Made by a program: the position numbers | Part shown: positions 40,901 to 43,900 of the stretch, piece by piece | How positions within the stretch are numbered: position 1 is the stretch's first letter | How the letters are laid out: every line of letters starts with the position of its first letter | Origin: Candidatus Cloacimonadales bacterium | Lineage (GTDB): Bacteria; Cloacimonadota; Cloacimonadia; Cloacimonadales; JAIOQZ01 | Assembly (NCBI GenBank): GCA_963662655.2 | Contig: CAXXTU010000002.1 | Span: forward strand, 2,944,001-3,008,000 | Length of the DNA stretch: 64,000 nucleotides | Direction: 5' to 3'

Positions 40901-43900
40901 AACAGCGAGAAGAACGTGTTTCACCAGTTGTTCGAGGAGGGGATCAATTCCGGAGAGATGAATCGTGATCTTACGACCGATCTCGCGGTGGATTTCCTTC
41001 AAAAGGTGATTTACGGCATCGCGCATTCCTACATCCTGCACCCGAATTTCCCCCAGGAGTACTATCAAAAGGAGATCGACTACCTTTTCCGAGTCTTTGC
41101 CCCGTGAGATCGGATTATTCGCTTCGTTCCTTTTCATGAAGCGTTTTGCGCTCTGTTACTTTGTATCCCAATCATTATTCCTCATACGATCTTCCCCGCC
41201 AGTTTAAAAGAACTTGCCGAATCTCGATGAAGATGCTACGAATGGCTTGTAAATGATTCTGTGTCATCATTTGAGATTCGCTGCGCTTGGTGTCGACCTG
41301 ATTGCTCCGACTTGTCGTGGACATCGAAGGGCCAAGCCAAGCGGAAATCATAATAAAGCATTTGCCGGTGGTATATATATATGAATTCAATTCCCTGGAT
41401 GGAGGGGCTGAGAAGTCAGCCGGACGACGACGCGCGTATTTCGTGGATACGCGATGACGAACACGCTTGCATGTTCAAGGATGCGCCGTTACCGGATCCG
41501 CTCGATCGGCTCAATTCGTTGTTCGACGACAAACGGAAGCTTCGCGAGGCGTACTATTACATAGGCGTACGCTATTACCAGAAGATGCGCATGGAAGAGG
41601 TGCTGGAGTGTTTCCAAACCGTACTGGAGATGAACGATGGCTCGGATTACTTCACGGGCATGGCAAAATTCTATCTGGGTGTGATATTCCGCAACGAGGA
41701 TCGCTTTGAGGAGGCTTATCGGATGTTTCTCGAAGTAATCCCCGTGCTCGAGGAACAAGAGATGATCCTCAGCCTGGCGGGGGCCTATCAGAACCTTGGC
41801 TCGATCGACACCGAGAGAAATCACCTCGAAGACGCAACGAAGAACCTCGAGAGATCAATCGAACTATTCCAGGAAGTCGGTGACGAAACCGGACTCGCCA
41901 TGTCGCTCTCGGATTACGGTGCGGTATGCTGGATTCGCGGTGAAGCAGCCCAGGCATTGAAATACCACTTGCAGGCGTTCAAGAAGCTCGGGGATTCGGA
42001 TAACAGGTTCCTCCTCGCAAACATCCACAATCGAATCGGGTTGTGCTACTATCGCTTCTCTGAATTCGAGAAAGCGCTTACGGAGCACATGAAGGCTCTG
42101 CGGATTCAGGAAGAACACGGCATGCGAAGCTCGTGCGCCTTTTCGCTCAATCACATCGGCGCCATCCACCGCAACCTGAAGAACTACGATCTCGCGCTGG
42201 AGTATTACCGGAAATCGCTGCAAATCTACCTGGATATCAACCACCACCTGGGTATCGGCATGATCTACAACAATATCGGCCTCATATACCAGGATCAGAG
42301 GAATTTCGAAGAAGCGCTAAGCTACTTCCTCAAAGCGAAAGAGATCAAGACGCGCTTCGACCTGCAGCAGACGCTGCCGATCACGCTGGAAAACATCGGA
42401 ATATGCTATACGGAGCTCGGTGACTACGACCAAGCTTTTGCCTGCCAGACACAAGCGCTTGCAATGTACGAGGAAACACCGGGTAACATCGGAAATATCG
42501 GTTGCCTCGTGAGTATCTGCGAACTCTTCGCGTACAAATACCGGGATTCCGGCGAGATGGAATCGTTCCACAAGTCCATGAGATACTACGATATGGTCGA
42601 CGAAGCCATTGGGAAGCGAAACGAGAAGGATATCCGGAGCACGAGACTCCAGTTGCAGGAGATCGGATTGAAGCTGCTGAAGGCGCATGCGGAGAAATTG
42701 TTCAGTAAGGGCGAGTTCGAGCAATCCTCGATCTATTACCGGAAAGCGAACGCGTTGTTCGATTCGATGATCATCCTTCGCGACGAGATATACGACGACC
42801 GCCGGAGAATTCGCATTACCGATTTGCAAATGCTCTATGACATGGAGAAGAAGGAAGCGGAAGCCCAGATCGCGAGGCAGGAAGCGGAAATCATGCGCTT
42901 GAAGAACGTCGAGCTCGAGGAAATGAACCAGCGCCTGATCAGAACCCAAAATGAGATGCTCGAGCTGGAGCGAAATAACTCGATTCTCGCCATGGCCGTT
43001 ACTGCAAACCACGAGATCAATCAACCGCTGATGGTGATTCGCGGGAACCTGGATATGCTGACCCAAAACCTGGGTGGAGACAAAAAAACACCCGAGACGA
43101 TGCGGTATTTATCGCGCATCGACGAATCCTTAATGAAAATAAAGAATATCCTCTGTAAGTTTAAGGAATCGAACAGGATATCCATCGAGGCATACAGCCA
43201 GGGTACGCAAATGGTTGTGTTTGATCGCGATGAAGAGGGGAATTAGATAATACATTCACTTGGAACGGTAAAATAAAAAAAAGCTTGCGTATATTTTCTC
43301 GTGATCTCAATCTGAACATCCTGTTTCAGGGATGAATTTGTCTCAATACGTTTTAGCGTTATTATCTATGTTGAAACAGGGTAAGGTTTGGAACATGGAA
43401 GAAATCGAAGGTTTAATTAAACAAGCGACAACAGCTCCGCCACAGAAACAAGTCGAATTGTATCTGGAAATATCGAGGCTGTATTCATCCAATTCCGAAT
43501 CCCGCAGCCTTGAATATGCGAAGAAAGCCTATAACATCTCTGACAAGTATAGTAACAAGCTTGGTAAAACCAAGGCGATGATCGAACTGGCGAACATCAA
43601 CCAGGATTACAAACACAATCCGGAAGCCCTCGATTATTATCGCCAAGCGCTTGGCGCAGCCGAGGAACTTGGCGACCGTGATATCAAGGCGGACGTTCTC
43701 GTCAAAATCGGCAATATCCATTACTCGATGGGAGAATACAGCAAGTCGCTCGACTACTTCTTCCGCTCCTTACGCATTCTGGAAGACATCGACGATAAAG
43801 ACCTCATTGCGAACGTCTCCAACAATATCGGGCGGGGGTACACCGCTTCAGGCAACAACGAGAAGGCGCTCGAGTACTTCATGAATTGCCTGCACATCAA

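Follow-up and report, generated by a model that had tools for sequence, protein, structure and literature searches.

A protein of 621 amino acids, encoded in a 64,000-nucleotide stretch of a Candidatus Cloacimonadales genome (the window, meaning the whole stretch of DNA that was analysed), belongs to an expanded family of proteins that end in a histidine-kinase DHp domain and a short tail and lack the CA domain, a module for which DHp* is used here as our own label. Read from their sequences, these proteins are best taken as a class of sensor-fused phosphatases or phosphotransfer proteins that would be unable to autophosphorylate. A fuller picture is offered tentatively, being less probable than its negation: more than 20 ATPase-less sensors with one docking face and a Tyr/Met tail may set a single receiver, which would receive its phosphate via a separate ChpT-like pseudokinase, so that the kinase and phosphatase arms of two-component signalling would lie in different protein families, and a version of the module without the His may be conserved from Cloacimonadota to deltaproteobacteria.

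The focal gene and its parts are listed in Table 1. In the encoded protein Pfam finds HisKA at residues 542-591 and no HATPase_c over the 621 residues, and a hydropathy scan predicted no membrane helix in the TPR array. His544 is encoded by CAC at 43010-43012, Tyr605 lies at 43193-43195 and Met611 at 43211-43213, and the stop codon occupies 43244-43246. That the gene is a broken or frameshifted kinase was ruled out, because its syntenic orthologue in genome G001 (58% identical) ends at the same point and dN between the two is 0.34, with dS saturated at about 3; judged by this comparison, the gene is intact and under purifying selection. The order of focal gene and complete kinase is also kept in G001.

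Table 1. Features of the focal gene and related genes in the window
Feature	Position in window	Strand	Basis
Focal gene: TPR input, linker and DHp* module	41381..43246	+	621 aa; Pfam, orthologue
TPR repeat array, about aa 50-370, presumed input	41528..42490	+	Pfam TPR_12 6.6e-52
Coiled-coil linker	42716..42943	+	linker HMM
DHp helical hairpin, H-box H-E-I-N-Q-P, docking surface M-V-G-N-D-M	42944..43168	+	HMM, model
Tail: invariant Tyr at 43193, Met at 43211; beta-hairpin in the model	43178..43222	+	
Complete TPR-HisKA-HATPase kinase, 85 bp downstream of focal gene	43332..45230	+	
Second DHp* member in the window, membrane dCache_3-DHp*, 439 aa	30232..31551	-	

Elsewhere in the window, a 16S-23S-5S rRNA operon (45699-50544, +) directly follows the complete kinase, and at 50736-53111 (+) lies one of the genome's four TPR-sigma54 AAA+ activators that carry the TPR linker of the focal gene. 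Three genes at 32831-36886 (-) form one operon, presumably consisting, to judge by the translations, of a TetR-like gene, an 896-aa multi-pass RND/MMPL-like exporter and a 246-aa exported protein.

An iterated HMM covering the last 100 residues, run over 21,186 ORFs of the genome, converged on 25 copies, of which 24 are terminal (within 9 residues of the C-terminus) and one is internal (C2:553703). The same count had been given by the first-pass annotation, and its statement that the copies stand well apart from true kinases was borne out, with all 25 at E<=3.5e-24 and the best true kinase at 3.7e-7. Residues E9, H23, P28, L29 and Y84 of the module are invariant in all 25 copies, and Met90 is conserved at 90% or above. 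HisKA was found by Pfam in every copy, and both Pfam and a CA HMM confirmed the reported absence of CA/HATPase_c after the DHp in 24 of 24 terminal copies; the internal copy is followed by a CA domain, but only after a second DHp. In its protein (G000:C2:553703-556240, G000 being this genome) the module is fused to a PAS kinase; SiaC and DUF6272 genes lie upstream (L001), and G001 and G003 retain the long form. Inputs of the terminal copies comprise TPR in 15 (one with PAS), REC only in three and Cache in two, while REC-PAS, a PAS array, GAF and HAMP-PAS occur once each; in the REC-PAS copy the receiver Asp is replaced by Asn. As far as sequence goes, the DHp* proteins keep the receiver-docking helices without the ATP-using part. 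Matches to an HMM of the linker were found in 14 DHp* proteins, four TPR-kinases and four TPR-sigma54 activators, and because the linker also feeds these kinases and activators, DHp* appears to behave as an interchangeable output domain.

The AlphaFold model of the monomeric module (pLDDT 86.6) has helices at 2-42 and 50-75 and strands at 79-85 and 88-93, in agreement with the two helices and C-terminal hairpin described before. The idea that the tail is left over from the first strand of the CA domain was rejected, as the profile alignments, made to two kinase sets alone, broke off where helix 2 ends. Neither Foldseek, which matched kinase DHps with none at E<=0.001, nor a VIA search, which returned generic helical hairpins with a best Z of 8.4, was informative on the tail. 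A PDB sequence search matched the DHp helices only, and an ESM Atlas search yielded HisKA-labelled clusters and one unnamed set.

When 41 Cloacimonadales genomes were searched, 29 gave matches at E<=1e-8; the weak matches of four (G017, G026, G030 and G035) proved to be true kinases and were dropped, leaving 25 genomes with strong DHp* matches and 16 negative ones. Three genus relatives hold 27, 27 and 31 matches and other families up to 17, so that an earlier tally of 14 copies each in two relatives and none in 20 of 25 genomes understates the spread. Among the matches listed outside the phylum, the module with its tail Tyr was seen in Desulfobacterota as well as in records that bear the titles Bacteroidia, Planctomycetota, Neomarinimicrobiota and Elusimicrobia. 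Of the representatives at 50% identity, 2,556 score E<=1e-10, though some true kinases may be among them; in 145 of the best 150 the module is C-terminal. By these sequence matches the DHp* class is not lineage-restricted. The first-pass proposal of a class of sensor-fused phosphotransfer or phosphatase proteins survives as the best reading, and gene context strengthens it, but the class is neither restricted to one lineage nor without an earlier name. One Desulfobacteraceae record (L120:2737-3852) has the order REC-DHp*-REC, with a receiver directly after the tail. A deltaproteobacterial subfamily (L408, L409, L410, L412 and L420) has Ser at H+4 and ends in at least one acidic PGFE(D/E)Y(L/I)E motif, which we take to recall the receiver-binding tail peptide of CheZ. 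Subfamilies of DHp* may differ in function.

Most of the expanded family shares one docking surface. At the receiver-specificity positions of helix 1, for which the numbering is assumed from EnvZ, 21 of the 25 paralogues read M-[VI]-[GA]-[NS]-[ED]-[ML], a pattern found in none of 50 true kinases. Mean identity at these positions is 59% among DHp* proteins, 40.5% among CckA-like hybrids and 13.5% among ordinary kinases. Because the TPR parts of the paralogues are only 24% identical, the likeness at the surface argues for selection and not recent duplication. From this pattern we infer that the 21 core paralogues share one receiver partner.

The leading candidate for that partner is RR1, a single-domain receiver (G000:C1:46248-46613). 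In family f8 a single-domain receiver whose best match in this genome is RR1 lies between DHp* genes, and at one f8 locus (L326) two RR1 copies alternate with two DHp* genes. Orthologues of RR1 (E<=2.3e-28) occur in all 25 DHp*-positive genomes and in none of the 16 negative ones; they form one clade (SH-aLRT 94), with 99-100% identity among those of the genus. Each present in 18 of 41 genomes, flagellin and CheY follow a pattern unlike that of DHp* and were discarded as co-occurring partners, and seven genomes of families f7 and f8 without flagellin and CheY keep both RR1 and DHp*. Also discarded were the receiver at C2:2443218, which is near-universal (38/41), a REC-PilT protein with strong matches in 13/41 only, and, for the core copies, the receiver RR3, present in 10/41 only. 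Since RR3 groups (SH-aLRT 98) with receivers next to Desulfobacterota-type DHp* genes in deltaproteobacteria, it probably serves the Desulfobacterota-type copies. In the REC-PilT protein (G000:C2:1467070-1468608) an orphan receiver is joined to a PilT-type ATPase; another protein (G000:C2:721471-723681) has a receiver closely related to that of REC-PilT.

Judged by motifs, RR1 shares a cluster with CheY, a CheZ-like gene and an FlgS/FlgR-like pair. This motility-gene setting, seen in 18 genomes, suggests a role in motility or lifestyle control, but RR1 persists where flagella have been lost. At G000:C2:2405820-2409619, and in 18/41 relatives, there are four flagellin-family matches in tandem and a chemotaxis cluster; flagellar genes are confined to part of the order.

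How much weight the co-occurrence can bear depends on phylogeny. Because the presence label needs only two changes on a RecA tree of 40 genomes (G039 being left out), the co-occurrence of RR1 and DHp* amounts to one or two evolutionary events, a pattern that a marker of one clade could also produce; about one more event comes from the deltaproteobacterial clade. RR1, RR2 (the receiver of the operons described below) and the deltaproteobacterial receivers do not form one resolved clade in the tree, and clear single-domain RR1 orthologues were not found in five DHp*-bearing genomes of other phyla. A predicted complex of two DHp* chains with RR1 scored 0.58 against 0.01 for the best control, with at least 91% contact agreement between runs and a partner pLDDT of at least 81; among solved pairs 116 of 157 pass the mark applied, among mismatched pairs 2 of 215, and scores up to 0.60 include 18 of the solved pairs and both mismatches. 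The prediction lends weak support to the pairing; it resembles textbook DHp-REC complexes, so that the predictor may pass it by having learned them.

Residues of the H-box bear on what the module might do to such a receiver. In a set of 244 modules with less than 70% identity to each other, Glu stands at H+1 in 242, Asn at H+3 in 240 and Gln at H+4 in 243, and every one of the 244 has the tail Tyr, counts that lean high, since His was required by the filter and part of the set came from a scan with the pattern HE[IL]NQPL; six entries off the H-box filter were left out, among them two distinct proteins without His. In the HisKA kinases tested in one study, the acid at H+1 served kinase activity only and Thr or Asn at H+4 phosphatase activity only (PMC3510030). 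The Gln of DHp* differs from this canonical Thr/Asn, but DrBphP, a natural phosphatase that has lost the acid at H+1, retains phosphatase activity with Gln at H+4 (PMC8292422). HK853 without its CA domain is a phosphatase in which the His acts as base, and the CA domain stimulates the reaction (PMC7005713). In both proteins a HisKA DHp dephosphorylates a receiver by means of a His and a polar residue at H+4 (PMC7005713; PMC8292422), the closest chemical likeness to DHp*, although the HK853 DHp is an engineered truncation, DrBphP keeps its CA domain, and DHp* keeps the H+1 acid that DrBphP lost. Because Gln at H+4 works in DrBphP and HK853 is active without CA, the DHp* H-box fits a phosphatase, while the retained Glu argues for a His that may still be phosphorylated.

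A second candidate partner co-occurs with DHp* in the order. Pht (G000:C2:879867-880571, -) is a sensor-less, ChpT-like pseudokinase of 234 aa with a DHp and a degenerate CA, in which Pfam finds no match; helix 1 with its His is strongly conserved, and the CA has decayed, as have the ATP boxes in most copies. It is present, as a single copy, in 24 of the 25 DHp*-positive genomes (24/41 overall; it is absent only from a 68%-complete genome) and in none of the 16 negative ones. Further examples are L099:4871-5572 and deltaproteobacterial relatives of about 214 aa. Those kinases related to Pht that keep intact ATP boxes and carry Asn at H+1 have a wider distribution and a regulator of their own. 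All five Pht-bearing deltaproteobacterial genomes tested hold DHp*; of the five DHp*-bearing genomes from other phyla, two at most show Pht-like proteins.

In 11 of 21 Cloacimonadota Pht loci the gene order is a single receiver (RR2, best match RR1), a sensor-DHp* protein and Pht, an arrangement that G000 itself lacks. The DHp* of these 11 loci has Asp in place of the His and keeps the tail Tyr. A scan for His-less DHp* in all species genomes gave 40 loci, 39 of them new and mostly deltaproteobacterial, in two main lineages; 34 of the 39 abut an RR1-like single receiver, and four of the other five lie near contig ends. Ser or Thr is mostly kept at H+4, the deltaproteobacterial order is hybrid kinase, REC-DHp*, receiver, and of the 30 His-less loci outside Cloacimonadota, 24 belong to assemblies in which a Pht motif turned up as well. 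The tail of this subfamily, modelled from 15 sequences, formed no hairpin (pLDDT <50). The invariance of the His, as first reported, therefore holds for the 25 copies of this genome but not family-wide, given a conserved subfamily without the His that keeps the Tyr tail. Going by sequence, this subfamily cannot relay phosphate through a His. The DivL-type combination of a replaced His with a single-receiver partner is found, in sequence and gene order, in the His-less subfamily and not in the 25 copies.

The reading favoured here, held at a little under even confidence, is that DHp* proteins are sensor-controlled phosphatases of RR1~P. The module would derive from the DHp of an NtrB/FixL-type kinase and serve as a modular output domain; it would dimerise into a four-helix bundle and dock one dedicated single-domain receiver, most likely RR1 for the 21 core paralogues. 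Under control of a TPR, PAS, Cache, GAF or REC input, it would remove the phosphate from RR1~P, with the His as general base and the Gln at H+4 placing the water, while the Tyr/Met tail would replace contacts normally made by the CA domain. RR1 would be supplied with phosphate in some other way, plausibly by the Hpt-less hybrid kinases through Pht.

That DHp* is instead a sensor-gated phosphotransferase or phosphate sink, as in ChpT or Spo0B, seems fairly unlikely. Its His would take phosphate from a receiver (its own, that of a hybrid kinase or RR1) and pass it on or store it, as would suit the conserved His and the Glu at H+1. Architecture is consistent with such a role: terminal copies with REC make up 26 of the best 150 representatives, REC-DHp* often follows a hybrid kinase (L019, L062, L125 and L140), P0101 has the order kinase-REC-DHp* with DHp* where an Hpt would sit, and the genome has 18 CckA-like hybrids and only six Hpt matches. 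Against it stand the conserved His-less subfamily, in which both the tail and the kind of neighbouring receiver are retained, and the strict Gln at H+4, which lies at the phosphatase position; Pht is also a better ChpT candidate than DHp*.

It is unlikely, too, that DHp* acts by binding alone, sequestering or reading RR1~P in the manner of DivL with DivK~P, or forming a heterodimer with Pht or a true kinase in the manner of RetS with GacS, so that a partner without a sensor would gain the one of DHp*. Such docking would suit the 11 adjacent pairs of His-less sensor-DHp* and sensor-less, His-bearing Pht, which are complementary, as well as the shared assemblies outside Cloacimonadota noted above; the helix-1 profiles of DHp* and Pht align (probability 96.9), and each of the genome's three "NATK..KF" kinases either has DHp* next to it or includes it. 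The near-invariance of H, E, N and Q in the main subfamily, however, is left unexplained by mere binding, and the adjacency to kinases may reflect a shared TPR duplication.

Complete kinases are indeed found beside some copies. In a neighbour scan in which 61 of 87 neighbour ORFs were annotated with Pfam and CA, REC and DHp HMMs were run on all ORFs, complete kinases adjoined four of the 24 terminal copies, the focal one included, and the internal copy is itself part of one. The initial assertion that no CA gene lies beside the family is accordingly right for stand-alone CA genes but overlooks these kinases. The only stand-alone CA gene found by the CA HMM in all ORFs encodes a HATPase_c protein (G000:C2:402961-403629, -; L098) in a NuoE/NuoF-type Fe-S operon. 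Four kinases of the genome (G000:C2:2232926, 2674935, 2031376 and 3261541) carry H-N instead of H-E/D with intact ATP boxes, and the first pair have orthologues with a sigma54 regulator across the order. A split kinase, in which a CA domain in trans, for example from these H-N kinases, phosphorylates the DHp* His, is very improbable despite the conserved Glu at H+1, for the H-N kinases lie beside a sigma54 regulator of their own and are also present in f2 and f11, families without DHp*, the ATP boxes of Pht are mostly decayed, and no co-occurring stand-alone, active CA partner was found in the genomes compared.

CA-less proteins of this general kind are known under other names, as the first-pass annotation had anticipated. 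A census class, "HisKA, no HATPase", for which phosphoacceptor or phosphatase roles were proposed, includes REC-bearing members described as unstudied and without known partners (PMC5847659), and P2CS uses the terms "phosphotransfer proteins" and "incomplete HK" (PMC2716373). Members of the census class and DHp* proteins both have an N-terminal sensor or REC and a C-terminal HisKA with its His and no HATPase; the census class is described for archaea, with at most seven per genome, and is likened to DHp* by description only (PMC5847659). The passages that describe these classes mention neither the tail nor a shared docking surface, a partner receiver or a His-less subfamily (PMC5847659; PMC2716373). 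The opposite class is treated in a bioRxiv preprint (10.64898/2026.02.27.708494). Literature searches, mainly of non-subscription journals and without supplements such as Galperin Table S2, found no study of the DHp* tail family or of Cloacimonadota two-component systems. What is new here is the expansion with one docking face, RR1 and Pht as candidate partners, and the His-less operon.

ChpT and Spo0B have a degenerate CA or alpha/beta domain and no sensor, a description that fits Pht and not DHp*, with its sensors and short tail. DivL, RetS and ChrS are single-copy regulators of one pathway that keep all or part of the CA domain, unlike the 21 DHp* paralogues with one surface. What ChpT and Spo0B have in common with DHp* is a DHp-type bundle with a His and no working ATPase (for the role of ChpT, PMC12471899). 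In DivL-DivK and RetS-GacS, a non-phosphorylating relative of a kinase acts via a single-domain receiver or a heterodimer (PMC12471899; PMC12189002), and the CA-frameshifted pseudokinase ChrS is of the same non-phosphorylating kind (PMC9491836).

CA-less HisKA proteins are commonly mis-annotated as kinases. For the family described here, RR1 and Pht can be named as candidate partners, and the His, the Glu at H+1, the Gln at H+4 and the tail Tyr as candidate residues. The CA-less sensors probably form a many-sensor switch on a single regulator. If the favoured reading is true, sensing would proceed by regulated dephosphorylation alone, with more than 20 inputs on one receiver, which would extend current two-component models.
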